Source: Fimbriimonadia bacterium (GTDB lineage Bacteria > Armatimonadota > Fimbriimonadia > Fimbriimonadales > JABRVX01). From it: DNA of 64,000 nt. The notes under the pieces were generated by a model, which was not told where the DNA came from, searched no databases, and worked only from the letters and a program-made list of their open reading frames with translations. Shown here one piece after another: positions 3,156 through 20,708 of the stretch; positions within the stretch are counted from its first letter, which is position 1; every line of letters begins with the position of its first letter. Location: positions 1-64,000 of the forward strand of contig JABRVX010000059.1 of assembly GCA_039961735.1 (NCBI GenBank). Direction: 5' to 3'. A program made the translations under genes and the position numbers.

Positions 3156-3175
3156 GTTAGGTAGGGGGCGGCTCA

Positions 3176-5457: not shown

Positions 5458-6138
5458 ATGAATATGAGACTGGCAAAGAGAGCGACACAGGCACAGACGG
5501 TCTCCGTTTTCGAGGGCCGGATACCCTATCGCCATGTGCAATACCGGGTGTTCAAACGCGTGCTGGACGTGACGGGTTCTGCCGCCATGCTGCTGCTGCT
5601 GTTCCCACTCATGGCTGCCATTGCGCTAGCCGTCAAGCTGACTTCCCCTGGCCCGGTGATCTTCATGCAGCCGCGGGTGGGGCTCCGCGGGCGAACGTTT
5701 ATGTTCCTGAAGTTCCGCTCCATGTACATGGATGCCGAGCAGCGGCTCCGAGAAGTGGGCGGGCTGAACGAGAAGGATGGACCGATCTTCAAGATCAAGA
5801 ACGACCCCAGGGTCACGCCGATCGGCCGGACGCTGCGCAAGTTCAGCCTCGACGAGCTGCCGCAGCTCATCAACGTGCTGCGCGGGGACATGAGCCTGGT
5901 GGGACCACGTCCGCCATTGCCCCGCGAGGTGGAGAAGTATGATGAAGAGAGCTATGTACGGCTCTGCGTGACTCCGGGCATTACTTGCCTTTGGCAAATC
6001 TGCGGCCGCAGCGATCTATCCTTTGTGGATTGGGTCCGACTAGACAGGTTCTACATCGAGCACATGTCGTTCTGGCTCGATCTGAAGATTCTGCTCTTGA
6101 CCATTCCTGCAGTGCTGAAAGGACAAGGAGCATACTAG
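5458..6138 (+). CDS. Polyprenyl-phosphate sugar phosphotransferase (bacterial sugar transferase family, WbaP/WcaJ C-terminal-domain type)
   Basis: Single N-terminal TM, then the conserved core PGPVIFMQPRVG...FLKFRSM...DELPQL...GDMSLVGPRP. Start uncertain: in-frame GTG at 5422, ATG at 5458 or 5464. Confidence 0.8.
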   Translation: MNMRLAKRATQAQTVSVFEGRIPYRHVQYRVFKRVLDVTGSAAMLLLLFPLMAAIALAVKLTSPGPVIFMQPRVGLRGRTFMFLKFRSMYMDAEQRLREVGGLNEKDGPIFKIKNDPRVTPIGRTLRKFSLDELPQLINVLRGDMSLVGPRPPLPREVEKYDEESYVRLCVTPGITCLWQICGRSDLSFVDWVRLDRFYIEHMSFWLDLKILLLTIPAVLKGQGAY

Positions 6139-6217
6139 CCGGGTGGGATAGAGGCGCGCGCAAGGCGGGCATGTCGGCACGTGGCGACCACCATCGGCAA
6201 CGACATAGGGGTATCGG

Positions 6218-7168
6218 TTGAATCGGATACTGGTAACGGGCGGGGCCGGCTTCATCGGAGGCTTCGTCGTCGAACAACTGCTGAGCGCGGGGAAGGCCGT
6301 TCGGGTGCTAGACGACCTGTCCACTGGCTCGATGGACACGCTGGACGGTCTGGTTGGCAATCTGGAGTTTCAGCGTGGGGACATCCGCGACGAGAAGGCG
6401 GTTCGCGCCGCGGTTGCCGACGTTTCCGGCATCATTCACCTGGCTGCCGACATCTCGGTCCCCGATTCGCTGAACAATCCACTTCACACCTACTCGGTCA
6501 ACGTGATGGGTACGTTGACGGTGCTGGAAGAGGCGCGTCGTGCGGGGGTGGAGAGCTGCGTGATAGCCAGCTCGGCCGCCGTGTACGGAGAGCCTGTTGG
6601 GAGCAAGCAATCCGAGGACTCGCCTACGCTGCCCCTGTCGCCCTACGGGGCGAGCAAGCTGGAGTGCGAGCAACTTGCCTCGCTTTACAGTCGCGCATTT
6701 GCGGTGCCGACGCTTTGCCTACGGTTGTTCAATGTTTACGGGCCCCGGCAGAGGCATGATTCGCCCTATGCCGCCGTGATCCCCATTTTTCTCTCGCGCA
6801 TGATGCAGGGGCTGCCACCGCAGGTTTTCGGTGACGGTCAGCAGCGACGTGACTTCGTGTTCGTCGGCGACGTGGCGCGGGCCCTGATTGGAGCGCTGGG
6901 GCACCCCGAGCTTGCTCCAGGCGTGTACAACGTGGCATCTGGCACGAGCTGCAACCTGCTGGACCTTATCGCAGAGATCAACCGGAGCCTGGGCACGGCG
7001 CTGCAACCCGAGTTCTTGCCGGAGCGGAAGGGAGACATCCGTGAGAGCGTCGCCGACATCTCGCGGGCTCGTCACGAGCTGGGCTTCTCGCCTGCCGTGT
7101 CACTGGCGGAAGGAATCTCCCGAATCGTCCACGAGCGCGTTGTCCCGACGGAGGCGGTCGGTGGCTGA
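6218..7168 (+). CDS. NAD-dependent epimerase/dehydratase (extended SDR, GalE-like)
   Basis: TGGAGFIGG Rossmann motif, catalytic YxxxK (PYGASK), overall GalE/UDP-sugar epimerase architecture. TTG start. Confidence 0.8.
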   Translation: MNRILVTGGAGFIGGFVVEQLLSAGKAVRVLDDLSTGSMDTLDGLVGNLEFQRGDIRDEKAVRAAVADVSGIIHLAADISVPDSLNNPLHTYSVNVMGTLTVLEEARRAGVESCVIASSAAVYGEPVGSKQSEDSPTLPLSPYGASKLECEQLASLYSRAFAVPTLCLRLFNVYGPRQRHDSPYAAVIPIFLSRMMQGLPPQVFGDGQQRRDFVFVGDVARALIGALGHPELAPGVYNVASGTSCNLLDLIAEINRSLGTALQPEFLPERKGDIRESVADISRARHELGFSPAVSLAEGISRIVHERVVPTEAVGG

Positions 7169-8093
7169 TGCTGCGCAGGCTGCAGAACAGGTTGCCGTTG
7201 ACGCCAAGCCTCTGCCTCTTAGCTTGCTCGTGGCGATGCGCCCGAGGCAGTGGGCGAAGAATTTCCTGCTGTTCGGCGGGCTCATCTTTAGCGGGAGCTT
7301 TGCGAAGCCCGAGCTGGTACTTCGTTCGTTCGCAGCCTTCGCCCTGTTCTGCGCGCTGTCGAGTGGGGTGTACCTTCTGAACGATGTGCGCGACCGAGAG
7401 CGGGACGCGCTGCACCCTGAGAAGAGGAGACGGCCCATCGCTTCCGGCCGTGTCTCGGTCGGTCTCGCCGTGGGGACGGCAGTGGTGCTGCTGGTAGCCG
7501 GGATCGGATTGGGCTTCGCTCTGGACCTTGGCTTCGGTGGTGTCGGGACTCTCTACCTTGTCTTACAGGGCGCGTACACCTATGCGCTGAAACAGGTCGT
7601 GATTCTCGACGTCTTTCTGGTTGCTGCCGGCTTCGTGCTTCGGGCTCTTGCCGGCGCGGTTGTTCTGGACGTGCGGTTTTCGCCCTGGCTGTTCCTGTGC
7701 ACGATGATGCTCGCGCTTTTCCTAGGTTTCGGCAAGCGGAGGCACGAGTTGTTGTCGCTGGGTGCCGAAAGCGGCATGCACCGGAACGCGCTGAGGGAGT
7801 ACACGCCCAACCTGCTGGACCACGCGGTCGTGGTGAGCGCAGCATGCACCGTAATGTCCTATGCGCTCTACACGATCCAGTCGACGACGGGTCAGTCCAA
7901 TCCGTATCTGATGCTGACCATCCCGTTCGTGCTCTATGGGGTGCTCAGGTACCTATACCACCTGTACACGCAGCGCGAGGGAGGGAGCCCGGACAAGCTG
8001 CTCTTTCAGGACCCTCACCTCTTGCTGACTGTAGGGTTATGGGTCTTAGTCGCCATCCTCGCGATGGTGCTGGGCAAGACTGGAGTGGAATGA
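7161..8093 (+). CDS. UbiA-family prenyltransferase resembling decaprenyl-phosphate 5-phosphoribosyltransferase (DPPR synthase)
   Basis: N-terminal RPRQWAKNFLLF motif, Asp-rich NDVRDRERD motif, multiple TM helices. Putative GTG start overlaps the epimerase stop (GTGGCTGA); ATG 7233 is the alternative. Confidence 0.7.
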   Translation: MADAAQAAEQVAVDAKPLPLSLLVAMRPRQWAKNFLLFGGLIFSGSFAKPELVLRSFAAFALFCALSSGVYLLNDVRDRERDALHPEKRRRPIASGRVSVGLAVGTAVVLLVAGIGLGFALDLGFGGVGTLYLVLQGAYTYALKQVVILDVFLVAAGFVLRALAGAVVLDVRFSPWLFLCTMMLALFLGFGKRRHELLSLGAESGMHRNALREYTPNLLDHAVVVSAACTVMSYALYTIQSTTGQSNPYLMLTIPFVLYGVLRYLYHLYTQREGGSPDKLLFQDPHLLLTVGLWVLVAILAMVLGKTGVE

Positions 8094-8121
8094 CGTGGTC
8101 AATGGTAGTCTACCGCCCAGC

Positions 8122-8646
8122 ATGACGGAGATGACCGGAGTTCGAGCTTGGGTACAGCGGCAGCCGGAGGCTCGTCGCCAGTTCGTGAAGTTCGCAGTGG
8201 TCGGGGCCTCGAGTACGGTGCTCGACCTGCTGACGTATAAGCTGTTGTGGTTCGTGCTGCCGGTCATTCCCTACGCTATGGCTCGGGGAGTGTTCCTGCT
8301 GACCGATCCGCTGGGCATCGCGCTGGACCTACAGAGAACTGCCGCTGCGATGGCCAGCGTGATCTCCAGTGGAGTGGTGGGCACTGCCAACAGCTTCTAT
8401 TGGAATCGAAAGTGGACGTTCCGCGCAAGCGGACACGACTTGGCAATCCGACAGATACGTCGGTTTCTCTTCGTCTCGTATACCGGCATGGCCCTGAGGG
8501 CGATTATCGTGTATGGGTTGATGCCTCCGACAGGCGTCCGGCCGTCAGCTATTCAGGTGCTGATTTATCAGCTCATAGCCATCGTGATCGTGATGTTCTG
8601 GAACTTTTTCATGAACCGCCTATGGACATTTCGCAAGAACCGATAA
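8122..8646 (+). CDS. GtrA family membrane protein (polyprenyl-phosphate sugar translocation-associated)
   Basis: RRQFVKFAVVGASSTVLDLLTY N-terminus and four TM segments, typical of GtrA (PF04138-like). Start ambiguous: GTG 8095, ATG 8122 or 8131. Confidence 0.65.
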   Translation: MTEMTGVRAWVQRQPEARRQFVKFAVVGASSTVLDLLTYKLLWFVLPVIPYAMARGVFLLTDPLGIALDLQRTAAAMASVISSGVVGTANSFYWNRKWTFRASGHDLAIRQIRRFLFVSYTGMALRAIIVYGLMPPTGVRPSAIQVLIYQLIAIVIVMFWNFFMNRLWTFRKNR

Positions 8647-9533
8647 CGCAAGAGAGCTCAGCCGAGGAGACCAAGCCAGAGAAGCGCAAGTTTCAGCTCA
8701 AGATTCCGGAGCTGGAGACGCGCGATTGGGTTTTGATCGCGCTGCTCGTGTTCGCCGCCGTGGCGCCTTTCTGGAGAATGTGGGAATATGCCTGGGACCA
8801 GTGGTTCAAGGATACCGGCTACTATCAGCACGGTATCTTCGTGCCGTTGCTCATCGGCTACATGCTGTGGCGGCGATGGGAGGACCTCCGGCAGATAAGT
8901 GTGAACCCAGCCACATGGGCGATTGCCGTGGTAGTGCTTGGGGCGCTGGTCGGATGGTGGGGCAGCCGTGTTGATAGCCAGGTGGTTAGGCAGTTCGGGT
9001 TCATGGTATTCCTGTTCGGCTCTTGCCTGTATGTGCTGGGGACTAAGATGACCCGTGCCCTGCTCATGCCAATCATCCTCGTCGGCTTCATGCTTCCTTT
9101 GCCAGACCTCGTCTTCAGCCAGATGACGAACTCCGGTCAGGTGTACTCTACCAAGCTGGCGGTCAAGATGCTCGACTTCTTGGGCTATGAGCCGCACATG
9201 GTAAACAACTCCACAATCACACTGGACAACTACCAGATGGAAGTCGGGGTGCCCTGCAGCGGCTTCAAGCTGACGATGGCGCTACTGATGTTCGGGTTAT
9301 TCTTCTGTTCGATAGCCAAGTTCAACTGGTGGCGGTCGATCATCATGTTCTTGGTGTTGGTGCCCGTCGCGCTCATCGTGAACAGCTGGCGTGTGGGGAT
9401 GATCGGCATCTTTGGAGAACACTTCGGTGACGCTGCGGGCAAGCTGTTTCACGATTGGGGAAGCTACTTGGAGCTAGTGTTGGCATACGGTGCACTGTTC
9501 GGACTTGCGAGGTTGCTAGGATGGAAAGAGTGA
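8622..9533 (+). CDS. Exosortase (EpsH/XrtA-like)
   Basis: Polytopic membrane protein with conserved exosortase motifs VGVPCSGFKL (catalytic Cys), NSWRVG (Asn/Arg) and multiple TM helices. Overlaps the GtrA 3' end. Confidence 0.75.
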   Translation: MDISQEPITQESSAEETKPEKRKFQLKIPELETRDWVLIALLVFAAVAPFWRMWEYAWDQWFKDTGYYQHGIFVPLLIGYMLWRRWEDLRQISVNPATWAIAVVVLGALVGWWGSRVDSQVVRQFGFMVFLFGSCLYVLGTKMTRALLMPIILVGFMLPLPDLVFSQMTNSGQVYSTKLAVKMLDFLGYEPHMVNNSTITLDNYQMEVGVPCSGFKLTMALLMFGLFFCSIAKFNWWRSIIMFLVLVPVALIVNSWRVGMIGIFGEHFGDAAGKLFHDWGSYLELVLAYGALFGLARLLGWKE

Positions 9534-10177
9534 GAAAGCACGCGATAAACATCTTCATCATCATGCTGCTGTGTACGATCGCCATCGCCGTGACGCCAGT
9601 TCGTCGGTATCAGGTACCGAATCAGGAGTATTACGTCGAGCGGGTCCCCAAGAACATCGGCAACTTCTCCGCTCGCCACACCAGCGACATGAGGGAGGTA
9701 TGGGAAGCCCTTAGTCCGGACGGAATCGTGTGGTCGGTTTACGAGGGGCCGGGGGTTCAGTGGATTGATTTCGTGTTTCTTTCCGGGCGTTCATCGGACG
9801 CCTTTCACGACCCACAGCTCTGCTTCCGCAACCAGGGCTGGAATTTGGAGCCGCCCGTGGTGAAGCACATGCGGATCGACTCGCTCAGCCAGGACATACC
9901 GGTCAACGTGCTATCCATGACCAACACGAGCGGGGTCAAGGCGACGGCGATCTACTTCTTCATCGGCCCGTTCGGCTATACGGCCAATCCCTTCGTGATC
10001 AAGATGTCGCTGTTCGCCGCGAAGAGTCTCGGGATATCGGCGGGCCAGGGCTACTTCATCCGGTTCATCGTGCCCACTGAGACCTCGCAGGAAGACGATT
10101 TGGAGAAGATCCGACGCTTTGCCTCCGACATATTTGCTGTGCTGAAAACCACTTTGCCGGAGGCGATCAAGAGCTAA
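9521..10177 (+). CDS. EpsI family protein (exosortase-associated)
   Basis: Single N-terminal TM then a periplasmic domain. Position immediately after, and overlapping, the exosortase is the classic EpsH-EpsI arrangement. Confidence 0.6.
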   Translation: MERVRKHAINIFIIMLLCTIAIAVTPVRRYQVPNQEYYVERVPKNIGNFSARHTSDMREVWEALSPDGIVWSVYEGPGVQWIDFVFLSGRSSDAFHDPQLCFRNQGWNLEPPVVKHMRIDSLSQDIPVNVLSMTNTSGVKATAIYFFIGPFGYTANPFVIKMSLFAAKSLGISAGQGYFIRFIVPTETSQEDDLEKIRRFASDIFAVLKTTLPEAIKS

Positions 10178-10186
10178 GGGCTGCCC

Positions 10187-11752
10187 ATGTCGATTCATCA
10201 CCAGCTAGCCGAGATAACTCACAACATGCGACTGTCGGTCGCGAAGCAGCGGCGCGGCTGGTTCAATGCGGTCAGCCGTGAAGCGCGGTTCAACATCATC
10301 CTAGCGGTTCTGTGCCTGATAGCCGCAGCCGTCCTGCTGTATCTGATGGGGGACTTGGAAGGCAGGCCTCTGCGCATGGCGATCGGTTTCGTGGCCGGCC
10401 TGCTCGCGTTCGTATTGGTGGCGCGGGCGCCAGACTCGCTGATCGGTGTTGTTCTGATCCTCAACGCTACCATCTTCGGCTTTGGCGCGTTCAGCTCGAT
10501 GATGTTGAAGTTCAACGTCTTCGAGACGCAGGAGGTGGTACTCGGAGCACTGCTGGTCTTCGCGTTTTGGGAGCACTTGCGGCAGGGGAAGCAGGAACGT
10601 GCATCCGTGGATACGGTGTTTGTCTCGCTGCTGATCTTCTATGCGATCGTGCTCTTCCAGATACTGCGTGCCCAGTTCCTTCAGGGACGCGAGTGGGTAT
10701 ACATCTGGGACCAATACGGCAAGATGTGCCACTACCTCTTGCTTCTGCCGATGATCATCTATTTGCGCGACCCGGAACGTCTTCGGGTGTTCCTGTGGGT
10801 GCTGTTCATCGGTACTGGCGTCGCTGCTTGCCAGACCTACTACTTCTTCTTCTTCGGTGCCGGTGGTTGGGGGCACCTGTTCGGGTTGGTAGACGTCAGC
10901 GCCCGCGGAGTAGGATTGGCTGTTCGCCTGCCCAGTTCCATGTTGATGATGGGCATGACAATCGTCTGCTTCGCACTCTATCTGCACGTGGATGACGAGA
11001 AGAAACGGAAGTTCTATCTCTTCGCCATGCTGGCTTTCATGATCGCCGTGGGCATGAACAAGGGCAGGAACGCCTACGTCGGAGTGCTAATCGGTACCGC
11101 CACTTTGTGGGTCTTTTCGAGCCGTCAGGCCCGATGGCGGGCATTTAAGGATGCATTCTGGCTATCGGCGATCTTCTTTGCCGCTGCGGTGGCAATCCCG
11201 CCACTGGGAGCGAAGGTCATGAACGTAGCCGAGCAGATCGGGATTCGGTTCATGCAGACCTTCGACCCTGTCGAGTATGAGGCTGGTGGCTATCGCGACC
11301 GAATGCGTGAGGTGGAACAGGCGCTGCCGAGATTCTACGAACACCCCATCCTGGGTCAGGGGCCGGGGGAGTATCTGCGCAGAACGTACGAGGTGACACG
11401 ACTTGGCGCGCACAAGATCGTCTACCAGCCCTATGTGCACAACTCCTACGTGTATATTCTGGCGACTGGGGGAGTGCTTACGTCCGGGGCAATCCTCGGA
11501 ATGTTCGGGGTCTGGATCGTGACGAACCTAAGACGGGTGCGTAGGCTTCGCAACCCCTATGCGCGCGCTTTCGCGTGGGGGGGCGTGGCCTACATGCTGG
11601 CGATGTTAGCGAGTTCCTGGGTGCAGCCCAACTTCTTTCTGAACGCGCCTATCACTACCACAGTAGTAATCGTCGGATTAGCTGAAGCCGCCGCCAGACG
11701 TGATCTGGAGGAACAATCACGTCTCAAGACTGAAACCTTCAAAGCGGCGTGA
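10187..11752 (+). CDS. O-antigen ligase/polymerase family membrane protein (Wzy/WaaL-like)
   Basis: About 12 TM helices with a large loop containing HNSYVYILATGG, the O-antigen ligase-like His/Arg loop motif. Confidence 0.7.
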   Translation: MSIHHQLAEITHNMRLSVAKQRRGWFNAVSREARFNIILAVLCLIAAAVLLYLMGDLEGRPLRMAIGFVAGLLAFVLVARAPDSLIGVVLILNATIFGFGAFSSMMLKFNVFETQEVVLGALLVFAFWEHLRQGKQERASVDTVFVSLLIFYAIVLFQILRAQFLQGREWVYIWDQYGKMCHYLLLLPMIIYLRDPERLRVFLWVLFIGTGVAACQTYYFFFFGAGGWGHLFGLVDVSARGVGLAVRLPSSMLMMGMTIVCFALYLHVDDEKKRKFYLFAMLAFMIAVGMNKGRNAYVGVLIGTATLWVFSSRQARWRAFKDAFWLSAIFFAAAVAIPPLGAKVMNVAEQIGIRFMQTFDPVEYEAGGYRDRMREVEQALPRFYEHPILGQGPGEYLRRTYEVTRLGAHKIVYQPYVHNSYVYILATGGVLTSGAILGMFGVWIVTNLRRVRRLRNPYARAFAWGGVAYMLAMLASSWVQPNFFLNAPITTTVVIVGLAEAAARRDLEEQSRLKTETFKAA

Positions 11753-12957
11753 CACCCGCTACATTGCCTCCACTTCGTCTGGTTCTCGTTACTCGTGCTT
11801 ATGCCACTCATCGAATTGGTGGGTTGGAGAGGCACGCGAGGGACGTGGCAGAGGGGCTGGTAGCACGCGGTCACTCGGTGACGGTGTGGACAACCGCCCA
11901 CCCTGCCGAGTCCGGATGCCATTCGAATGAGAGTGTGTTCATTCGCTACTTCCCGGACACCGCACCGGGCCTCCACTCTCGGGAGTTCAACCAAGCGGTG
12001 GTACAGGCGCTTGCCGAGGATCACTCTTTCGACTTGATGCTGGTGGAGTCACGCTCGGCTGAGGCGGCTCTCGACAGGCTGCGTCCCCCGCAGCGCCCAC
12101 CGGCTATCATGTTCATCCACGGCACCGAGGTGTCCGAGGAGCTCTCGATCATCGCTTTCGACCGTGGCCCGGGGCGGTATCTTCGGTTGCTCACGCAGCG
12201 CCTGCCTGCAATGCTCCGCTCGCTCGCGCGCCCTCGGGCGCACTTCGCCGCCGAGAGAGTGGTGTGCGTGAGTCAATACGTGGCCGATCACCTTGCCTCG
12301 GTTTATCTGGCACCGCCCGAGGTGCTCCGCGTGGTCCGGAACGGCATACCGCTTCCCCCGATGCCTACCCAAGCCGATTGTAGGGCGGCACGAGAGCATC
12401 TCGGCTTGCCACAGGACGCGACAATCATCCTGTGCATCGGTCGTCTCGCTCCGGACAAAGGCTTTGACAATGCGATATGGGCTTTTGGTCGCGTGCAGCG
12501 AGACTATCCGTGCCTGCTGTTGATAGTTGGCGGAGGACCGGACGAGGAGCGGTTGCGGTCGCTAGTTGCATCGCTCGGACTCGGCAAGGTCGTGAGGTTC
12601 GCCGGCGAGGTGCCTCAGGCCGCGACGCCACCGTACTACGCTGCTTCGGACATTCTGCTGCTACCCGGTGTGCGGTACGAGGGTCATCCCTATGTACTCG
12701 TGGAGGGGGCAGCGATGGGGCTTGCCGTGATCGCCTCGGATCGCGCGGGCCTGGGTTCCGAGCTGGCCGGCGAAAAGATCGCACTCACCATCCGTCCCGG
12801 CAGTGTGGACGATCTCGCCGACGCGTTGAGAACACTACTCGGCTCCGCTGAACTTCGCCGGAGGATGGGAGGCGCCCTGCGCCGGCACGCAGAGCGCCAC
12901 TACACACTCGACGCAATGTTGGACGGCATCGAGGCCGTCATGTCCGAGTTGCTCTAG
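11749..12957 (+). CDS. Glycosyltransferase family 4 (GT-B, group 1)
   Basis: C-terminal EX7E-like region GEVPQAATPPYYAASDILLLPGVRYEGHPYVLVEGAAMGLAVIAS. GTG start overlaps the upstream stop. Confidence 0.8.
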   Translation: MTPATLPPLRLVLVTRAYATHRIGGLERHARDVAEGLVARGHSVTVWTTAHPAESGCHSNESVFIRYFPDTAPGLHSREFNQAVVQALAEDHSFDLMLVESRSAEAALDRLRPPQRPPAIMFIHGTEVSEELSIIAFDRGPGRYLRLLTQRLPAMLRSLARPRAHFAAERVVCVSQYVADHLASVYLAPPEVLRVVRNGIPLPPMPTQADCRAAREHLGLPQDATIILCIGRLAPDKGFDNAIWAFGRVQRDYPCLLLIVGGGPDEERLRSLVASLGLGKVVRFAGEVPQAATPPYYAASDILLLPGVRYEGHPYVLVEGAAMGLAVIASDRAGLGSELAGEKIALTIRPGSVDDLADALRTLLGSAELRRRMGGALRRHAERHYTLDAMLDGIEAVMSELL

Positions 12958-14426
12958 AAACCGTCGGGGCCACCAGGGACCGGAGGGCCACCGATCTTGG
13001 CCACTGCGGTATAGGTTTCGTAGTCGTACTCGAGGACCAGCGTGCCCTCAGCAGGCACCACGGCTTGCCATTCGACCTTGTACACCGCGTTCGGGTCGCC
13101 TGTGAACACTTGCGTATCCTTGACGACGCCCCCGCCTCCGACCTTCGTGAGTTTCCCGCGCACGGTTCGGGTGATCTTGATCGGGGCATCCGCTTTTCGG
13201 AAGTTGGTTACCTTCAGTGTGCCCTTCATGATGACGGGCAAGAACTGAGTCTGTCCGATGGTCACGACCTTGCCTCGCTCGACCTCGACATCGGTGCGCT
13301 CGGTGCGCAGTCCGATGCCACGGGCGAGTCGCAACTCCGCGAAGGAGCCGCTCGGGGTGTACTTGATGGTCTCCTGGCCGACTGGTTTGCCGTCCTCGAT
13401 TACGAACACGGGGCCGTTGGTGAAGGGCTGCCCTGAACGGTTCTCGATTTTCAGGATGTAGCTCAACTCGTCGCCATCGGCCAACCATTCGAACTGTGGG
13501 GTGACCGGCGTAGTGTGCTGGAAGATGGTGACCATCGCGATGTCGCCCTTCTCGAGCGAGAGGCTGGGCTTAGTGTAGTAGAACAGCTCGCCTGCCCCCT
13601 CGCCGGCCAACGAGACGAACGGGGGCGGGGGCATTGCCGTCATCCCGGGGGCCTTAGCGACAAAGCCTGCGTCACCCTTCTCGGCCTCCTTCGCCTCGGC
13701 CGGCTCCGTTCCGGCGACAAAGGTCTCGCCTTGGCCACGATTGGACAAATGCGGCGAGCCGACCACGAACAGCACGTCCGTGGAGTTGAGAGCTTCTGGT
13801 AGGTTCAGGATGTTGCCACGGAGGGTCAGCATGCCCATCCCCTTCCCTTTCATCTCCAAAACGTAACTCGGCTCCCAGCGAACACCTTCCTGGACGTAGC
13901 TCATGCCAATGGTGGTCACCTTCTCCTTGTCCTCGGTGGCCATCTTGATGCGCAACGGGTATCCGACCAACATGATCTTCTGGATCGAATCGTAACGGAT
14001 GGCGGTGAAAGCGCCGCCGATGTCCAGCAGGATCATATCGTCCAGCAGCTTGGAGAGCTTGCCGGAGAAGTTCTTGCCCGAGGCGTCGATCGAGAGCTGA
14101 AGGCCTATCTTGTTCTCCAGAGCTTTCTTGATTGCTTCCGCGCCCTTGGCATCTATCACGTTGCTCTTGACGGACTGAAGCAACTCGATGGAGTCTGCAG
14201 GGTCACCCGGATAGACCCAGATCGTTCCGCGCACTGCGGTCGGCACGGACTTTGCGGTGGCCCAGCCGTCCTCCAGCTTCACCCTTCCCTCTCGCACGTA
14301 GTAGCCGAAACCGTCCTGGAAGATGGCCACCGTCTTGAGAGAGGGCTCGAAGGCCATGTTTTTGGGATCATCGGCAATAGCCGAGCCTGCGATCAACAGC
14401 AGCCCGGCGAACATCGTCACACGCAT
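12954..14426 (-). CDS. Secreted hypothetical protein (DUF4139/mucoidy-inhibitor-like fold suspected)
   Basis: Signal peptide MRVTMFAGLLLIAGSAIA. GGAGGAG RBS 5 nt upstream. No recognisable catalytic motif; family assignment is from memory and weak. Confidence 0.5.
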   Translation of the reverse strand: MRVTMFAGLLLIAGSAIADDPKNMAFEPSLKTVAIFQDGFGYYVREGRVKLEDGWATAKSVPTAVRGTIWVYPGDPADSIELLQSVKSNVIDAKGAEAIKKALENKIGLQLSIDASGKNFSGKLSKLLDDMILLDIGGAFTAIRYDSIQKIMLVGYPLRIKMATEDKEKVTTIGMSYVQEGVRWEPSYVLEMKGKGMGMLTLRGNILNLPEALNSTDVLFVVGSPHLSNRGQGETFVAGTEPAEAKEAEKGDAGFVAKAPGMTAMPPPPFVSLAGEGAGELFYYTKPSLSLEKGDIAMVTIFQHTTPVTPQFEWLADGDELSYILKIENRSGQPFTNGPVFVIEDGKPVGQETIKYTPSGSFAELRLARGIGLRTERTDVEVERGKVVTIGQTQFLPVIMKGTLKVTNFRKADAPIKITRTVRGKLTKVGGGGVVKDTQVFTGDPNAVYKVEWQAVVPAEGTLVLEYDYETYTAVAKIGGPPVPGGPDGF

Positions 14427-14527
14427 ATGCTCCTCCGCTTCCTCACTTGAGGAAGGCTGCGGTCCATGTCGGCCGCACTCCCCCGCTTCTGCAGGATCGC
14501 CATCGCTTCCTGCAGAAGCTGCGAGAG

Positions 14528-15859
14528 ATGTTTCGTCGGTCCCCTTGGGTTTGGCCGATGGTCCTTCTGAGCGTGGTGTTCCTGGGACTGTGCACTGCGT
14601 ACAACTGGCGGACGCCGTATCGGACGGCCGGAACTTACGTGCCCAGCGGGCTCGAGATGCCCATCCGCGGCGACGTGGAGGCGATGGCAGCCGAGGTCAT
14701 ACCCGATATCGGCGCTCCGGACGAGCGGGCGCACGTCAACTACATCCGTCACCTGTTGAGCGAGCGCAGATTCCCCGTCTTTCGGGTGGGGGACGGAGAG
14801 GGCTACGAGAACCACCAACCGCCGCTTTACTACTTGTTGATGTTGCCAGTGGGGGCGGTCGCTGGCGACGACACGAAGGCGGAAGGGTTTCTGCTGCGGT
14901 TGGCCACCAGTCTGATCGCGCTGGGGGCGGTCTGGCTATGTTACTTCACGATGCGGCGCCTGGTCGCCTCGGATGTCTGGGCCGTGGCGGCCACCGCCTG
15001 TGCCGCACTTCTGCCGAGCTACATGGCGCTCAGCTCGTCGGTAAGCAACGATGCGTTGCTGATCCTACTCTTCTGCGCCGTGCTGCTGGTGTGCATCCAG
15101 GGCGGGCAGGACGGATGGACCTATCGGAAGGCTCTCGGTTGCGCGGTACTTTGCGGTCTGGCACTCCTCACCAAGACTTCCGGCGTAGTGCTGGTGGCGT
15201 TCGCGGTGCTGGCGGTGTTGCTCACGACATCGGGGGAGCGGGCGGGGAAGCGACTGGGGCTGGCGGTGATCGTTGGGTTGGTGGCCACCGTTATTGCAGC
15301 ACCTTGGCTGGCGCGGAACGCGTCGTTGTACAGCGACCCGCTAGGGTTGAAGATCTTCGAGGAGGGGTTCGCTGGCTCGCCGCGGGCGGAGACGTTCATC
15401 CAAGCGTTCGGGGGCGGGGCCTACTTGGTGCAGTGGGTCGGGTGGTGGACGCTCCGGTCATTGTTCGGCGTGTTCGGCTACGCGATGCTGCTTCTGCCGA
15501 GATGGGTCTACGTGTGCGGCGGCTTGTTGTTGCTGGTGTGCGCATGCGGGATGGTACGGGCTCGCGTTCGGGAATGCGACGCGAAGTTGAGGCGAGGCTG
15601 GGCTCTTTGTGGACTTCTCTTCGCCCTGGTGTTCCTGGGGTTCCTCAGGTTCAACATGACGTATTTCCAGGCGCAGGCGCGGTATCTGCTGCCGGCGCTG
15701 AGTGCTATGGCGCTGTTTCTCGGGGTGGGCTGGTTCACGTGGCTGCCGGAACGGCGCGTCGCTTTTGCGTTCGTGCTGCCGATGCTGATGCTGATGCTGA
15801 ACGTGTACGCGCTGGTTCTCCTCGGGCCGGCCTTCGACCAGATCGTCGTCCTGCGGTGA
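14528..15859 (+). CDS. GT-C glycosyltransferase, family 39/ArnT/PMT-like (polyprenyl-phosphate-sugar dependent)
   Basis: Multi-TM protein with the first-loop DE motif (IGAPDERAHVNYIRHL). ATG 14528 is the first ATG after an in-frame TTG at 14447. Confidence 0.7.
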   Translation: MFRRSPWVWPMVLLSVVFLGLCTAYNWRTPYRTAGTYVPSGLEMPIRGDVEAMAAEVIPDIGAPDERAHVNYIRHLLSERRFPVFRVGDGEGYENHQPPLYYLLMLPVGAVAGDDTKAEGFLLRLATSLIALGAVWLCYFTMRRLVASDVWAVAATACAALLPSYMALSSSVSNDALLILLFCAVLLVCIQGGQDGWTYRKALGCAVLCGLALLTKTSGVVLVAFAVLAVLLTTSGERAGKRLGLAVIVGLVATVIAAPWLARNASLYSDPLGLKIFEEGFAGSPRAETFIQAFGGGAYLVQWVGWWTLRSLFGVFGYAMLLLPRWVYVCGGLLLLVCACGMVRARVRECDAKLRRGWALCGLLFALVFLGFLRFNMTYFQAQARYLLPALSAMALFLGVGWFTWLPERRVAFAFVLPMLMLMLNVYALVLLGPAFDQIVVLR

Positions 15860-15917
15860 AGGGCGTCGGATGCTCGCACAGAGGCGTTGAGATTGCCCAG
15901 AGATCGCCATGGTAGCG

Positions 15918-15955
15918 TGGTCACGCCGTGCCTCCGCTGCTCCTGCAGCGGAGGC
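15918..15955 (+). terminator. Perfect 16-bp-stem hairpin (gccgtgcctccgctgc/tcc/tgcagcggaggcacggc) followed by a T-containing tract, downstream of the GT39 gene
   Basis: Inverted repeat read directly from sequence. Confidence 0.6.
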
Positions 15956-16124
15956 ACGGCTATTCGTTCTTGCCCCAGGAAGAGGAATCCCGTTCGAGGC
16001 GTATCGTAGGAGCACAGTGCAGTAGGCTGGGCGCAAGAACTTAGCGAATCGCAGCAAACTTTCGCCCGTAATCTTGCGGTGAAGGCTCGGATGTGATAGT
16101 ATTTGTCTACTGTTGAGGATACTG

Positions 16125-16841
16125 GTGAATGAGAAACAGATGGCGACCGTCTGGACCGCCTCACAACTAGAGACGGCTCTCGCCCAGCTAAGGAGCATTG
16201 TTTCCGCGCGCGTGATCATGGATGCACAAAACGGCGTGCGGGAGATTCACGCCCTCACGGAAGGGGACCGCACGCCCAAGCAGGTCGTGAGAGACATCGA
16301 GTCCGCGCTTCAGGCCAGGTTTGGGCTGCAGGTGGACCACAAGACGATCAGTATCGCCCAGGTGGAGGATCGTTCCTACCTGCGGGGCCGACTTCGCCTT
16401 GTCGAGGTCAGCCACTGGCTGGAGGGCCGCAGGGCTCGCGCCTCGGTGCAGGTGGAGCGGCACGGCAGACTGATCACCGGTAAGGCCGAGGGACAGCGTT
16501 CCAGTTTCAACCTGTTGCGCCTCCTCAGCGAAGCCACGATCGACGTGGTGGAGCGCGCGTGTGGTTTGTCCGACCGGTTCGCTCTACAGGACTTGACGAC
16601 GAACGTGTCGCTGGGCGGGCGGCAGGTCGTGGTGGTTGCGCTTAGCTTGGTGAGTAGCGGGCCGGAGGAAGTTCTCACAGGATCGGCGTTAGTTCAGGAC
16701 GGCGACGTTCATCGAGCCGTTGTACATGCTACACTGGATGCGCTGAACCGGCGGCTGGAGCGGCTTCCTACCGAAGCGACCGAGGAAGCAGACGAAGCCG
16801 CGGAGGCGAGCCTCCCGAGCGGGTCACGATTTGACAATTGA
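16125..16841 (+). CDS. Hypothetical protein with two internal alpha/beta repeats and an acidic C-terminal tail
   Basis: ORF 16113-16841. GTG 16125 has a GAGGA RBS 5 nt upstream; ATG 16140 is the alternative. No family recognised with confidence (faint Asp23-like pattern). Confidence 0.45.
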   Translation: MNEKQMATVWTASQLETALAQLRSIVSARVIMDAQNGVREIHALTEGDRTPKQVVRDIESALQARFGLQVDHKTISIAQVEDRSYLRGRLRLVEVSHWLEGRRARASVQVERHGRLITGKAEGQRSSFNLLRLLSEATIDVVERACGLSDRFALQDLTTNVSLGGRQVVVVALSLVSSGPEEVLTGSALVQDGDVHRAVVHATLDALNRRLERLPTEATEEADEAAEASLPSGSRFDN

Positions 16842-16934
16842 TATCCGGTAATCGAATTCGCGGGGTGACGGGCGCGAAGCGAAGCGGAAACAGAGCGGAG
16901 ACCTGACCACCTATTCCACAAGGGGGTACCGCTT

Positions 16935-17060
16935 ATGTTCTGGGCTCAGATCCTAGCGCTCCTCGCAGCGCTGTCTGCCCTACTGGGGGCTAAGTTCACT
17001 ATCTATCCCCCGGATGACGTTGAAGTGTCCGCTCCGCCCGTGATGGGTGGACACCCGTAG
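16935..17060 (+). CDS. Putative small membrane protein (41 aa: MFWAQILALLAALSALLGAKFTIYPPDDVEVSAPPVMGGHP)
   Basis: ATG preceded by AGGGGG, 8 nt upstream. Single hydrophobic helix. Lies just upstream of the HD-GYP gene. Below the 60-aa cutoff of the ORF track. Confidence 0.3.
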   Translation: MFWAQILALLAALSALLGAKFTIYPPDDVEVSAPPVMGGHP

Positions 17061-17129
17061 CGGCAGGAAGCACCTGCCTCCCTGCGCCCCCCCCGCGAAT
17101 GCCCAATCTGTGGAACTCGGAGCCCTGCA

Positions 17130-18416
17130 TTGTCATCGGGAAGCCTCTCGGCCGCCTCACAACGTCTCATCTGGACATCCGGCTTGCTCGGCGCGGTCTT
17201 GTTCACGGCGAGCTGGGTTCTCGTGCCTCCGCAGAGCATCGAATGGGGACCGCTACTCGTGTTCGCCACGATGTTCGTTCTGTCGGAGTGGCTGACGATC
17301 CCCATTGGCGAGCGTGGCGTGCAGGTGAGCGTTTCACTGCCCGTAGTGGCGGCTGTCGCCGTTCTGTACGGTCCTGCGGTCGCCGGACTGATGGACGTGT
17401 GTGGCACGGTTGTTGCGGGCGCATCGCGAACCCTCCGGTCGCGGTCGCGCCGCCGGCGCTGGATGTGGCTGCTGTTTAACTGCTCCCAGGCCGCGATGTG
17501 CGCATGTGCAGCGGGATTGGCTGCGTACTCGATCCGATCCATGCTCTCCGACGGGCTTGCGCTGGTGATCGCGGCACTGGTCGCGACTCTCGTCTACATC
17601 GTTCTCAACTCACTCATCGTCGCTTCGATGGAGGCCGCGCTGTCCGGCTCGACCGTGACTGCGAAGCTGGACGAGAAGCGACGAGTCATCGGCTACCAGT
17701 ATCTGCTCTACGCTCTGTTAGCTATCCTCGTGATGCATCTTGCAGCCACGGAGCGCGTATGGGTATCTGCTCTCTTCCTGCTCCCGATGTGGGCGGCATG
17801 GCAGTGTTTCCAGCTACGCGCTCTCTATGAGCGAGACTATCGGGAGACCATACGTGCACTCGGCCTCATGATCCAGAGAGCCCACCCTTACACGGGTGGG
17901 CACCTAGACCGAGTAGCCCTCCGCGCGGCGAGGACTGCGGAGCGTCTGGGCCTGCCACCCACCGACGTTGACCTGATGCAAGACGCTGCACTGTTGCACG
18001 ACGTGGGAAAGATCGCGGTGGACGAGGCGATTCTGAACTTCCCCGGGCCTCTCAACGAAGAGCAGTGGCGCGTTGTCCGGAAGCACACCGAGGTGGGTGC
18101 AGAGATCCTCGGTCGGATCCAACTGCTGGAGCCAATCGTGCCCTGGATTCGTGCGCACCACGAACGTCCGGACGGCAAAGGCTATCCGAACGGGTTGTCC
18201 GACGCGGAGATCCCCGTTCAGGCGAAAATCATCGCGGTGGTGGATGCCTACGACGCGATGGTAGGAGGTGACAGACCGGGGGAGCAGCGACCCTATCGCA
18301 AGCCTGTGAGCCCCGAGGAGGCTTTGGAAGAGCTACGCCGCTGCGCGGGTACCCAGTTCGACGCGCGAGTGGTGGAAGAGTTCGCGGCCACCCTGCGAGA
18401 AGAAGGCGTAGCATGA
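17130..18416 (+). CDS. Membrane-anchored HD-GYP domain c-di-GMP phosphodiesterase
   Basis: N-terminal region of about 240 aa with multiple TM helices, then an HD-GYP core (LLHDVGK ... HHERPDGKGYP). Start is TTG 17130 (putative; no in-frame ATG until 17268, which would begin inside a TM helix). Confidence 0.75.
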   Translation: MSSGSLSAASQRLIWTSGLLGAVLFTASWVLVPPQSIEWGPLLVFATMFVLSEWLTIPIGERGVQVSVSLPVVAAVAVLYGPAVAGLMDVCGTVVAGASRTLRSRSRRRRWMWLLFNCSQAAMCACAAGLAAYSIRSMLSDGLALVIAALVATLVYIVLNSLIVASMEAALSGSTVTAKLDEKRRVIGYQYLLYALLAILVMHLAATERVWVSALFLLPMWAAWQCFQLRALYERDYRETIRALGLMIQRAHPYTGGHLDRVALRAARTAERLGLPPTDVDLMQDAALLHDVGKIAVDEAILNFPGPLNEEQWRVVRKHTEVGAEILGRIQLLEPIVPWIRAHHERPDGKGYPNGLSDAEIPVQAKIIAVVDAYDAMVGGDRPGEQRPYRKPVSPEEALEELRRCAGTQFDARVVEEFAATLREEGVA

Positions 18417-19099
18417 CGTGGCCTGTTTACCTCAGCCTGCTGGTCTCGATCTTGGTGACGGCGTGGCTGTGTTACAGCGCCTTTTGGAGCCTCCCACGAG
18501 AAGCGCGACGCAGGGTGCGAGACAGTCTTCGTGCCGTCTCGCACGCCGTGGAGTGCCGAGCGAATCACCGCCTGGGCCGTTCCGAGGACATTGCGGCGCT
18601 GGCGCTGGCGATCGGCCACCGACTTAAGTTGTCACGTCGCAAGCTGTTACGTATCGAGATGGCGGCGTACCTTCGCGACTTCGGCCTTACCGCGATCCCA
18701 TACGCAATCATCAACACGCCACCCGAGAAACGGACGCCTGCAGAGCAGGCCACCTATGACACGCACACCGAGCGCGGCAGCGGCATGGTAGCACTGATCC
18801 CTTCTCTGCGATCAGTGTCAACGCTGGTGCGGGACCTCGATGCATGGTGGGATGGTAGCAAGTCCCCGCAATTGCCTAAGGCGATTGCGATACCGATCGA
18901 GGCTAGGATACTCGCTGCGGCCGCTGAATTCGGGGAGACTGCAGCGCAGTACGGGCAAGAAAGAGCGATCGAGCGTCTCGCCGAGAGGCGAGGGACGCAG
19001 TTCGATCCGCTGGTGGTAGACGTACTACTGGAGCTGGAGGGGCCGTTCCGTCTGGAAGAAACACCAGCGCGGACCGGGACGCATGCCGGGCGATACTGA
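18413..19099 (+). CDS. Degenerate HD-GYP-like protein lacking the HD and GYP catalytic motifs, with N-terminal TM
   Basis: Aligns by eye with the C-terminal domain of the upstream gene, but has YLRDFGL in place of LLHDVGK and WWDGSKSPQLP in place of HHERPDGKGYP. ATGA overlap with the upstream stop. Confidence 0.6.
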   Translation: MTWPVYLSLLVSILVTAWLCYSAFWSLPREARRRVRDSLRAVSHAVECRANHRLGRSEDIAALALAIGHRLKLSRRKLLRIEMAAYLRDFGLTAIPYAIINTPPEKRTPAEQATYDTHTERGSGMVALIPSLRSVSTLVRDLDAWWDGSKSPQLPKAIAIPIEARILAAAAEFGETAAQYGQERAIERLAERRGTQFDPLVVDVLLELEGPFRLEETPARTGTHAGRY

Positions 19100-20708
19100 A
19101 CCAAGACATCTCCCGCTATGGCTGCTAGCAGTCGGGGCCGGAGTACTCGCGTTTGGGCTACGGTTGCTAGGCATCGGTTGGGGGCTACCGAACGAGCTGC
19201 ACCATCAGCCTTACCACCCGGACGAGTACTTGCTGTACGTGTATGCGGTCGGCAATCTGGACCTTCCACATGGAGTGTGGAATCCGGGCTTCTACAACTA
19301 CGGATCATTGTGGTTGTACGTAATGCACCTCGTGTCGATTTTTCTGACCGGCTGGGGGCTTGCACCGGAGGGATCGGTAGCCGTCATACAGCTCGGGTGT
19401 CGTGTGGTTTCAGCCGGATTGGGTGCTGCCACGGTATCGCTGTGTTACCTAATCGGCGCGAGGGTATGGCGGCCGGCGGCGGGCATAACCGCAGCACTGC
19501 TTCTCTTGGTTGCACCAGGGCACGTGGTGCACTCTCGGTTTCACACGGTGGACGTACCGGCCACGTTCTTCGTTGCATGCGCTATGCTGCTGGCGGTGAA
19601 AGCACTGCAGGAAGAGGAGCTTCGGCGGGCAGTCCGCTTTGCGCTGTGGGGGTGCGCGATGTCGGGACTTGCGGCGGCGGTGAAGTACAACATGGCACTC
19701 GTGCTGGTGTGCCCCCTGCTCGCGCTGATGCTGCGCTCCATGCCTGGTAGGGCCAGGGCGACGTACGCCGCTTTGGGGGTGCTCTCCTGTGTGGTGGCGT
19801 TCTTGGTGACCACACCAGGCGCGATCTTCGCATCCGAGCAGTTTCTGCGTGATACGCTATTCGAGATGCGTCACGTGCAAGAGGGGCATGGGCTCGTCTT
19901 CGCCTCTACGGCGCCGGGATGGGTGTACCACCTCGGCAACATGGTCGAGGCGTTCGGGCTGGTGGTGCCCGCCATGGCATTGGTAGGGTTGGTCTTGGCA
20001 ATCAGGCTGAAGCGCTCGGCAGTCTGGTTGCTTTTAGCGTTTGCTCTTCCCTACTATGTGCTGATTGGTTCTGTCGAGGTGAAATTCTTGCGCTACGTGC
20101 TGCCGTTGGGGCCCGCGGTCTGCGTGTTCGCAGGGTGCGCGGTGGCGGCGGGCATGAGGGAGACCCTACTGGCGAGTCGTCCCGCAGTAGTAGCCGGCGC
20201 GATACTCGCTTTCGGTGCCACTTTCGGCAACAACGCCGCCGTGGTGACCGAGTTGATGCTCCGCGAGGACCCGAGGGATGCCGCGGCACGTTGGCTAGCA
20301 GTCAATGCCCAGGGAGCCTCGATCGGATTCCCCAATCCTCCATGGTACTACACCCCTCCACTCTTTCCCGAGACCGGAGCGGGTTTCGGAGAAGCCGGTG
20401 CGAGGTATCGTCTGCAGCGGATGGCCGAAGTCTCGCAATACCAGTTGCGATACTATCTGCGGGCAGATGGCGCACTGACGGAATGGGACCCACGACTGAT
20501 CACCGCGCTGCGCCCCGACTATGTGGTGTACTCGTCGTTCGAGTACGTGGACGCAGAGCGAGTGCGGCTTCCAGGTTATATGGACACACTCTCGCTGCTC
20601 AAAGAAAGGTACGAGTTGGTCGAGAGTTTCGGTTTTCGCGGGCAGATGTCGCATGACATGCAATACATTTCACCGCACATCGTGATATGGAAGCGGAAGA
20701 CACCCTAG
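19083..20708 (+). CDS. GT-C glycosyltransferase, family 39/ArnT-like, second copy
   Basis: About 11 TM helices, first-loop DE motif (YHPDEYLLYVYAVG), large C-terminal soluble domain. Confidence 0.7.
   Translation: MPGDTEPRHLPLWLLAVGAGVLAFGLRLLGIGWGLPNELHHQPYHPDEYLLYVYAVGNLDLPHGVWNPGFYNYGSLWLYVMHLVSIFLTGWGLAPEGSVAVIQLGCRVVSAGLGAATVSLCYLIGARVWRPAAGITAALLLLVAPGHVVHSRFHTVDVPATFFVACAMLLAVKALQEEELRRAVRFALWGCAMSGLAAAVKYNMALVLVCPLLALMLRSMPGRARATYAALGVLSCVVAFLVTTPGAIFASEQFLRDTLFEMRHVQEGHGLVFASTAPGWVYHLGNMVEAFGLVVPAMALVGLVLAIRLKRSAVWLLLAFALPYYVLIGSVEVKFLRYVLPLGPAVCVFAGCAVAAGMRETLLASRPAVVAGAILAFGATFGNNAAVVTELMLREDPRDAAARWLAVNAQGASIGFPNPPWYYTPPLFPETGAGFGEAGARYRLQRMAEVSQYQLRYYLRADGALTEWDPRLITALRPDYVVYSSFEYVDAERVRLPGYMDTLSLLKERYELVESFGFRGQMSHDMQYISPHIVIWKRKTP

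Follow-up and report, generated by a model that had tools for sequence, protein, structure and literature searches.

A candidate lipid-linked pentofuranose donor module within an exosortase-associated exopolysaccharide operon of Armatimonadota

The subject of this report is a pair of adjacent genes, encoding a UbiA-family membrane transferase and a small GtrA-family protein, that lies in an exopolysaccharide (EPS) operon together with an exosortase gene in a metagenome-assembled genome (MAG) of Fimbriimonadia (phylum Armatimonadota). The 64-kb stretch of contig that we analysed (JABRVX010000059.1, positions 1 to 64,000) is called the window throughout. Judged by its profile matches and conserved residues, the UbiA protein is a polyprenyl-phosphate 5-phosphoribosyltransferase (PPPRS) with an intact active site, co-encoded with GtrA in the exosortase EPS operon. 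From phosphoribosyl pyrophosphate (PRPP) the two proteins very probably produce a pentofuranose linked to polyprenyl phosphate and flip it, in parallel with the opening steps of the decaprenyl-phospho-arabinofuranose (DPA) route of mycobacteria. The most likely product is polyprenyl-phosphate-ribofuranose, which would decorate the EPS or the exosortase cargo in the periplasm. We consider it reasonably probable that the locus specifies a lipid-linked ribofuranose system of the three-component type, in which UbiA and GtrA form the donor module and an extended short-chain dehydrogenase/reductase (SDR) feeds the priming transferase of the operon. The window therefore offers a further example, from a poorly studied phylum, of a pentofuranose system described in 2024, and not a new pathway.

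The UbiA-GtrA donor module

The general Pfam model for the UbiA family (PF01040) matches the protein with 88.7 bits, and the two NCBIfam equivalogs for decaprenyl-phosphate phosphoribosyltransferase are both passed (NF008977 with 268.9 against a cut-off of 234, NF008978 with 236.6 against 207). All other NCBIfam prenyltransferase models score at most 37 bits, which rules out a quinone, haem or chlorophyll prenyltransferase. Among solved structures the best relative is Rv3806c (E=2.8e-36, 32% identity), with chlorophyll synthase reaching only 1e-6, and the NCBI annotation of the protein already reads decaprenyl-phosphate phosphoribosyltransferase. An earlier reading of this region, made from the sequence alone and referred to here as the sequence-only reading, had proposed an enzyme like decaprenyl-phosphate phosphoribose synthase next to a GtrA-family protein. 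Both assignments hold, and by these scores the UbiA protein does not group with menaquinone, ubiquinone or chlorophyll prenyltransferases.

We compared 14 residues of Rv3806c, namely 13 that a cryo-electron microscopy study (PMC10994848) implicates in binding PRPP, Mg2+ or decaprenyl phosphate, and D81 of the NDxxDxxxD motif. Twelve are identical in the window protein (R22, K28, Y70, N73, D77, D81, K87, R90, Q135, Y138, K143 and K191), and the remaining two are changed (Y157 to F and K208 to N). The substitution Y157F occurs naturally in mycobacteria (PMC10994848).

The gtrA gene begins 1 nt past the ubiA stop codon, and the same pair recurs in four other loci of our collection (L004, L005, L007 and L084). 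Because no GtrB-type GT2 glycosyltransferase was found among the open reading frames (ORFs) scanned across the 64-kb window, UbiA is the only lipid-phosphate-sugar synthase available to GtrA there.

The sequence of events that we envisage would begin with the conversion of PRPP and polyprenyl phosphate into polyprenyl-phosphate-ribose-5-phosphate by UbiA, as its family and its conserved substrate-binding residues suggest. A phosphatase encoded elsewhere would remove the 5-phosphate, and GtrA, given its family and its close spacing from UbiA, would flip the resulting polyprenyl-phosphate-ribofuranose to the periplasmic face. A glycosyltransferase of the GT-C type would then transfer the pentofuranose as a side chain to its candidate acceptors, either the exported polysaccharide or exosortase-sorted surface proteins. 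The SDR, for its part, would provide the priming transferase with UDP-GalNAc or a similar 4-epimer.

A conserved exosortase exopolysaccharide operon

The pair is part of a plus-strand operon (2205-12957) of ten genes in the order Wza, Wzc, priming phosphoglycosyltransferase, SDR, UbiA, GtrA, exosortase, EpsI, Wzy_C and GT4 (Table 1). Gaps between neighbouring genes do not exceed 9 nt from the SDR through GT4, where some genes overlap, and amount to 20-79 nt from Wza through the SDR. The downstream boundary is marked by a convergent minus-strand gene that begins at the end of GT4 (12957). The complete ten-gene order is retained in relatives whose UbiA proteins are 67% and 62% identical to that of the window, and unrelated genes follow it there. 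The conserved functional unit is the Wza-to-GT4 operon.

The operon resembles the XrtA/PEP-CTERM exopolysaccharide loci described by Haft et al. 2006 (PMC1569441) in combining an exosortase, EpsI, Wza/Wzc-type genes, an O-antigen-ligase-like protein and a small priming transferase in one cluster. The priming transferase matches TIGR03025 with 311.3 against a cut-off of 295.55, and the NCBI gene call gives it 226 residues. The Wzy_C protein is a candidate for either a polymerase or an exosortase-associated glycan ligase. The operon differs from XrtA/PEP-CTERM loci in that the exosortase, which passes the general model TIGR02602, scores 134.8 with the XrtA model, below its cut-off of 208, and a regular-expression scan found no PEP-CTERM-like tail in the ORFs of the window, where no PEP-CTERM cargo gene was seen. 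The locus is an exosortase system, not demonstrably of type A. A further difference is the insertion of the PPPRS-GtrA pair directly upstream of the exosortase, for which the XrtA locus on a Vibrio alfacsensis plasmid provides an analogous PPPRS insertion.

The SDR and the donor sugar

The SDR gene sits between the priming transferase and UbiA. Its product finds its top match in the PDB in PelX of Pseudomonas protegens (6WJB; E=6e-65, 223 bits), with 43.7% identity over 302 residues, followed by GalE of Thermotoga maritima (182 bits) and WbpP (169 bits). It falls short of the galE equivalog TIGR01179 (190 against a cut-off of 262.3), and by this profile it is not a GalE in the strict sense. 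The sequence carries a GxxGxxG motif (VTGGAGFIGG), an S-x23-Y-x3-K arrangement (YGASK) whose three residues align with the catalytic S121, Y146 and K150 of PelX, and the motifs FNVYGPRQ, RDF and GD(I)R. In GalE-type enzymes the FNxxGPRQ, RDF and GD(I)R motifs contact the nucleotide.

PelX itself is a UDP-GlcNAc C4-epimerase, as established by nuclear magnetic resonance and crystallography (bioRxiv 10.1101/2020.05.26.111013). Like the PelX/WbpP group 3 of UDP-N-acetylhexosamine C4-epimerases, the window SDR has the catalytic S...YxxxK residues and is encoded in an exopolysaccharide cluster; unlike the PelX gene, its gene overlaps that of a UbiA protein. Enzymes that provide the initiating sugar by 4-epimerisation are classically encoded beside a priming transferase. 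In two loci of Rokubacteria/Methylomirabilota type (L006, 3849-8876; L071, 7109-10983) the extended SDR likewise adjoins a priming enzyme, here a WecA-like transferase of 587 residues with Glycos_transf_4 and CoA_binding_3 domains, and is followed by UbiA and then DUF362. This order constitutes a second architecture in which the SDR stands between a priming transferase and a PPPRS. In L006 a UDP-glucose dehydrogenase gene lies between the WecA-like transferase and the SDR, and in a third locus (L010, 414-4186) a 587-residue ORF precedes the SDR-UbiA pair.

We therefore regard the window SDR as most probably a PelX-like UDP-HexNAc/UDP-hexose C4-epimerase that feeds the adjacent priming transferase, and probably not as an epimerase of the lipid-linked pentose. 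The sequence-only reading had offered two possibilities, a non-canonical epimerisation of the lipid-linked pentose by this enzyme and a ribofuranose donor. Its relatedness to PelX and its place beside the priming transferase speak against the former, and the latter is the reading that we favour, since with no lipid-pentose epimerase identified and the SDR assigned to nucleotide sugars, ribofuranose is the default donor sugar.

The GT-C genes form a separate block

Two genes for putative GT-C glycosyltransferases (GT-C1 and GT-C2) follow GtrA at distances of 5.9 and 10.4 kb. Both products match the Pfam families PMT_2/DUF2142/PMT above cut-off, and neither matches the Emb/Aft families; sequence searches against the PDB returned no matches for either. 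When their AlphaFold models (pLDDT 95.5 for GT-C1 and 93.6 for GT-C2) were compared with the PDB by Foldseek, all confident matches were GT-C enzymes, headed by ArnT, Pmt4 and AglB for GT-C1 and by AglB/STT3, ArnT and ALG9/12 for GT-C2. EmbC and AftA ranked 22 and 28 for GT-C1, and AftA and AftB 28 and 30 for GT-C2, all behind the ArnT, PMT, oligosaccharyltransferase (OST) and ALG enzymes. A DE motif lies in the first extracytoplasmic loop, between the first transmembrane helix and the next helix (D55/E56 in GT-C1, D47/E48 in GT-C2), and all 54 homologues compared for each protein retain it.

These results bear out the earlier proposal of two GT-C enzymes with a first-loop DE motif. A role as lipid A L-Ara4N transferases in an arn locus was rejected, with no arn-type genes (ArnA/B/C/D) found among the ORFs scanned in the window and no match to an ArnT model, NCBIfam giving only weak sub-threshold matches to other GT-C families. 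The accompanying view that the whole gene set sits inside the exosortase locus is right for the SDR, UbiA and GtrA, and does not extend to the GT-C genes, which lie past the operon end and belong to a separate block in relatives. Assembly GCA_041483895.1 has the EPS operon on contig 3, the minus-strand gene and GT-C1 on contig 6, and the HD-GYP, HD_5, GT-C2 and Xer genes on contig 13. A 7.8-kb contig from the same metagenome as one of the operon-bearing relatives carries exactly the minus-strand gene, GT-C1, the gene without assigned function, HD-GYP, HD_5 and GT-C2. Because the GT-C block lies on separate contigs in relatives, its proximity to UbiA in the window is a lineage-specific juxtaposition. 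By this comparison the linkage to the EPS operon appears to be recent, and it is weak evidence of shared function. GT-C1 and GT-C2 are nonetheless the nearest candidates for the third component.

The divergent neighbour of GT-C1 encodes a secreted protein of 490 residues whose homologues (712-757 bits) also adjoin GT-C1 in two further loci (L092, 8397-9863; L095, 58-1524), and it may be a partner or acceptor of GT-C1. The run of HD-GYP, HD_5, GT-C2 and XerD-like genes, with overlapping stops and starts, is kept in three lineages (window, 17130-21592; L094, 1219-5801; L095, 4072-7844), and one database protein of 894 residues (P0318) joins GT-C (PMT/PMT_2) and XerD (Phage_integrase) domains in a single chain. 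A GT-C gene is thus found in the company of genes for phosphodiesterases of the c-di-GMP type and for a recombinase.

Relation to described systems

According to Kelly et al. (PNAS 2024; PMC11127046), the extracytoplasmic attachment of side-chain alpha-pentofuranoses to bacterial glycans takes three components, namely a polyprenyl phosphoribose synthase homologous to Rv3806c, a flippase that is MATE-like or SMR/GtrA-like, and a GT-C enzyme. The model, which allows for a phosphatase either fused to the synthase or separate from it, has been demonstrated in Citrobacter, where the synthase is fused to a HAD phosphatase, and is predicted to be widespread outside Actinobacteria in many phyla. The same authors present genetic evidence that a single GalE-like SDR, ORF13 of C. 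youngae O2, turns a ribofuranose (Ribf) system into a xylofuranose (Xylf) system. They further find that DprE1/E2 homologues accompany arabinofuranose (Araf) systems, and that epimerase genes belong to the candidate modification system (PMC11127046). Both the existence of a DPA-like route outside Actinobacteria and epimerisation by one enzyme, which the sequence-only reading had put forward, are thus already on record.

The window shares with the ORF15-ORF14-ORF12 systems of C. youngae O1/O2 an Rv3806c-type synthase beside a small flippase in a polysaccharide cluster, a GalE-like SDR beside the synthase, GT-C genes nearby, and a predicted logic that leads from PRPP through lipid-phosphate-Ribf and flipping to periplasmic transfer. 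Unlike the C. youngae systems, the window has no fused or neighbouring HAD 'PRP' phosphatase. Its flippase is of the GtrA type instead of a small EamA/ArnEF-like transporter, although SMR/GtrA-type variants are noted in the same survey (PMC11127046). The GT-C proteins match PMT_2/DUF2142/PMT and none matches EpsG, whereas ORF12 is the EpsG-like founder of GT136 (Pfam families serving here as a proxy), and their genes lie outside the conserved operon. Finally, the system is hosted by a Wza/Wzc/exosortase EPS operon of an armatimonadote and not by an ABC-transporter O-antigen cluster.

With the mycobacterial DPA pathway (Rv3806c, Rv3807c, DprE1/DprE2, Rv3789 and Emb/Aft) the window has in common a homologous UbiA, a GtrA-family protein and GT-C enzymes as presumed users of the donor. 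It differs in that neither DprE1/DprE2 nor a PAP2 phosphatase was found in the window, in that its GT-C proteins are not Emb/Aft-like, and in its setting, a diderm's operon for exopolysaccharide and protein sorting, whereas mycobacterial DPA serves an essential cell-wall core. In line with the earlier remark that no DprE1/DprE2 pair is visible, we found neither a DprE1-type FAD_binding_4 protein nor a DprE2-type SDR among the ORFs scanned in the window, whose sole classical SDR is a FabI-like enoyl-ACP reductase (57207-58241). The evidence supports a lipid-linked pentofuranose donor route from PRPP, but not arabinofuranose, since DprE1/DprE2 were not found in the window and the GT-C proteins resemble Emb/Aft enzymes no more than they do ArnT, PMT or OST.

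Weighing the ribofuranose reading against its alternatives

Several observations weigh against a three-component ribofuranose system and are gathered here. No 5-phosphate phosphatase of the HAD/PRP or PAP2 type is present within UbiA or among the window ORFs scanned; such a gene may sit in another part of the genome. Two HD-domain phosphohydrolases encoded between GT-C1 and GT-C2 were considered for this step and rejected, since they are of HD-GYP/HD_5 type and their genes accompany GT-C2 and XerD instead of UbiA. For no GtrA protein has flipping been demonstrated directly (PMC11127046). There is no GT-C gene in the conserved operon itself or within 10 kb of it in the relatives with UbiA proteins of 67% and 62% identity. 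The SDR gene both abuts and overlaps UbiA, and the GalE-like ORF13 of C. youngae is known to epimerise undecaprenyl-phosphate-linked Ribf.

The UbiA family is very large, with 7,774 proteins at E<=1e-10 among 8,000 scored candidates and at least 593 relatives among the 600 pattern matches listed in GTDB species representatives. Its members are also carried on plasmids of haloarchaea, cyanobacteria, Bacteroidota, Lactococcus and many Proteobacteria. We examined 80 species-representative loci (GTDB; L010-L089), mostly from Chloroflexota, whose UbiA proteins are 42-54% identical to that of the window. The immediate neighbours of UbiA in these loci, pooled in one Pfam scan of the plus/minus-1 genes (n=130), are mostly housekeeping genes, among them FtsJ/S4 proteins (18/130), which are TlyA-like methyltransferases, GHMP kinases (10/130) and DUF362 proteins (9/130), and the PPPRS homologues are mostly solitary genes. 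By an iterated hidden Markov model (HMM), with which only the Fimbriimonadia loci and L007 were positive overall, GtrA adjoins UbiA in one of the 80 loci, L084. Given these neighbours and the rarity of GtrA, many members of the clade stand outside recognisable three-component clusters, which also weighs against the reading.

The most serious alternative that this distribution raises, though one we still judge unlikely, is that UbiA-GtrA serves a general envelope glycan, for example in cell-wall or lipoglycan decoration, that has nothing to do with the EPS or exosortase cargo, its position in the operon being incidental. Besides the clade members, most of them solitary genes in housekeeping contexts, a Fimbriimonadales genome (L084, 8421-11391) fits this idea, with genes for a HAD phosphatase, UbiA and GtrA between YceG/MltG and shikimate dehydrogenase and no EPS genes. 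Within the class, then, a PPPRS module can occur without an EPS locus, and this one includes the phosphatase missing from the window. In the lineage of the window, however, UbiA-GtrA is wedged among EPS genes with 1-nt spacing or overlaps, and the operon order survives divergence of UbiA down to 62% identity. Moreover, PPPRS modules recur inside EPS or XrtA loci of other bacteria. A Lactococcus plasmid has a polytopic protein, the phosphoribosyltransferase, a HAD protein and GtrA in a Wzx/Wzy cluster, and Jannaschia provides a further case. In V. alfacsensis, plasmid pYa108 (L090, 7441-18422) has a UbiA of HAD-fusion length (474 residues), a small EamA transporter and a 486-residue polytopic protein within an annotated XrtA/PEP-CTERM EPS locus, which makes it an independent PPPRS module in an exosortase locus.

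It is distinctly unlikely, in our view, that the SDR is instead a single-enzyme epimerase of the ORF13 type acting on polyprenyl-phosphate-ribofuranose, so that the donor would be polyprenyl-phosphate-xylofuranose (by epimerisation at C3) or, non-canonically, -arabinofuranose (at C2). A published precedent is ORF13 itself, a GalE-like SDR with the same motifs that alone sets Xylf against Ribf (PMC11127046). In 6 of the 80 loci and in L006 an SDR gene stands no more than about 1 kb from UbiA, and Epimerase-family proteins account for 4 of the 130 immediate neighbours, frequencies that look above chance, no background rate having been computed. The SDR stop codon (7166-7168) overlaps the UbiA GTG start (7161) by 8 nt, and the NCBI call in an identical MAG contig has the same start. 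The sequence-only reading had taken the two genes to be translationally coupled. The SDR is indeed an extended one, but the overlap is not conserved, the relatives having gaps of 26 and 47 nt instead, and the SDR equally abuts the priming transferase.

The comparison of the SDRs themselves also argues against this alternative. The full-length similarity to PelX and the retained nucleotide-binding motifs of GalE-type enzymes point to a nucleotide-sugar substrate, and the SDRs beside UbiA in other lineages are no closer to the window SDR than PelX is, the best of them outside its close relatives being 43.0% identical. Because the SDRs that adjoin the nearest outside UbiA proteins (52-55% identical) share just 35-38% identity with the window SDR, the SDR-UbiA pair has not been co-inherited. 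The best contextual candidate that we found for a lipid-pentose epimerase is a 356-residue NAD(P) oxidoreductase encoded between a HAD-fused UbiA and a polytopic protein on a Sinorhizobium fredii plasmid. This SDR is divergent, with only 28% identity to the window SDR, and stands well apart from nucleotide-sugar epimerases (PelX at E=1.6e-9). A 312-residue Vibrio protein and a 359-residue sphingomonad protein, both encoded upstream of HAD-fused UbiA proteins, were also considered as ORF13-like SDRs and rejected; neither matches a Pfam family, and neither is an SDR.

A bolder version would have the SDR convert the lipid-linked pentose to xylo- or arabinofuranose by one enzyme and the pentofuranose then be placed on exosortase-sorted proteins, a form of sorting-coupled glycosylation in Armatimonadota. 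We mention this long shot because a PelX-like SDR recurs between a priming transferase and a PPPRS in two unrelated architectures (Bac_transf in the window, WecA-like in L006 and L071).

A complete DPA-like arabinofuranose pathway, with DprE1/DprE2 and a phosphatase encoded elsewhere and GT-C1 and GT-C2 as arabinofuranosyltransferases, seems very improbable to us, even though the search covered only 64 kb of the genome, mycobacterial ubiA and dprE1/E2 lie tens of kb apart, and some Proteobacteria have an FAD oxidoreductase and an SDR beside UbiA-GtrA (Rhizobium tumorigenes, hit H28, and a Cereibacter plasmid with the order HAD-fused UbiA, GtrA, FAD oxidoreductase, SDR and polytopic protein). 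Neither an FAD_binding_4 oxidase nor a DprE2-type SDR turned up in the window, in the 10-kb operon flanks of relatives or among the commonest families of the 130 UbiA neighbours; Emb/Aft rank well below ArnT, PMT and OST for both GT-C proteins; and epimerase genes form part of the candidate systems surveyed by Kelly et al. (PMC11127046).

Other features of the window

The coordinates of the features discussed are given in Table 1. A 40-bp tandem repeat (751-936; 4.7 copies, 95% matches) follows the Y1 transposase gene, and together they (136-936) recall a REP-associated, RAYT-like arrangement. At the place that matches the prepilin-type gene, a 303-residue N_methyl protein is called in the identical MAG contig (L001, 78-989). 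Most of the remaining window encodes housekeeping functions, including DnaG, sigma-70, GlnA, isocitrate dehydrogenase (IDH), Lgt, UvrD and the FabI-like reductase.

Table 1. Features of the window, with positions counted from its first nucleotide
Feature	Position	Strand	Evidence and remarks
IS200-like Y1 transposase gene	136-681		
Protein with prepilin-type N-terminal methylation motif	950-1951	-	Directly upstream of the EPS operon
Wza-like polysaccharide export protein	2205-3155	+	Pfam Poly_export and SLBB; first operon gene, also in relatives
Wzc-like chain-length determinant/tyrosine autokinase with C-terminal P-loop ATPase	3176-5413	+	Pfam ParA/CbiA/AAA_31; kept in relatives
Small monotopic priming phosphoglycosyltransferase (Bac_transf; EPS_sugtrans subfamily)	5458-6138	+	Pfam 226.3 bits
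Extended SDR, PelX/WbpP/GalE-like	6218-7168	+	Pfam Epimerase 206.6 bits
UbiA, polyprenyl-phosphate 5-phosphoribosyltransferase (PPPRS/DPPRS, Rv3806c family)	7161-8093	+	Pfam and NCBIfam; 310 aa, no fused phosphatase
GtrA-family small membrane protein, candidate flippase for lipid-linked pentose	8095-8646	+	Pfam GtrA_DPMS_TM 69.2 bits vs 26.1
Exosortase (EpsH family), not XrtA proper	8622-9533	+	Pfam Exosortase_EpsH 165.8 bits; 25-nt overlap with the end of GtrA
EpsI-like exosortase-associated protein (DUF3485)	9521-10177	+	Pfam 53 bits; NCBI gene call
Wzy_C/O-antigen-ligase-like polytopic membrane protein	10187-11752	+	Pfam Wzy_C 36.3 vs 31.7; after EpsI in relatives too
GT4 cytoplasmic glycosyltransferase	11749-12957	+	Pfam Glycos_transf_1 and Glyco_transf_4; last operon gene
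Secreted protein, 490 aa, unassigned family	12954-14426	-	No Pfam or NCBIfam match; divergent neighbour of GT-C1
GT-C1, minimal GT-C glycosyltransferase	14558-15859	+	Pfam PMT_2/DUF2142; PDE motif in loop 1
Protein without assigned function	16113-16841	+	
Membrane-anchored HD-GYP protein	17130-18416	+	Pfam
HD_5 protein	18413-19099	+	Pfam
GT-C2	19083-20708	+	Pfam; overlaps the HD_5 and XerD-like genes
XerD-like recombinase	20687-21592	+	
Secreted protein, 854 aa	21894-24458	-	Sole recognisable part is a purple-acid-phosphatase N-terminal domain

Sequence data and comparisons

The locus is present in identical form in GCA_964650095.1 (contig CAZYQH010000022.1). Genes were identified from a listing of ORFs and from Pfam and NCBIfam profile scans of the window ORFs. 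In the 80 comparison loci, single-sequence phmmer searches are insensitive for GtrA and GT-C neighbours, and GtrA was therefore sought with the iterated HMM. The ORF caller gave spurious antisense ORFs in some high-GC loci (L006 and L010), and phmmer matches and precomputed gene calls were used there.

Significance

Nothing that is known is overturned by the system in the window. What it would do is add Armatimonadota, whose glycans have hardly been studied, to the phyla with a lipid-linked pentofuranose side-chain pathway. The PPPRS-GtrA donor module is embedded directly upstream of an exosortase, with a parallel in the Vibrio XrtA locus, and this arrangement leads to the prediction that exosortase-associated exopolysaccharides or cargo proteins may bear ribofuranose side chains.

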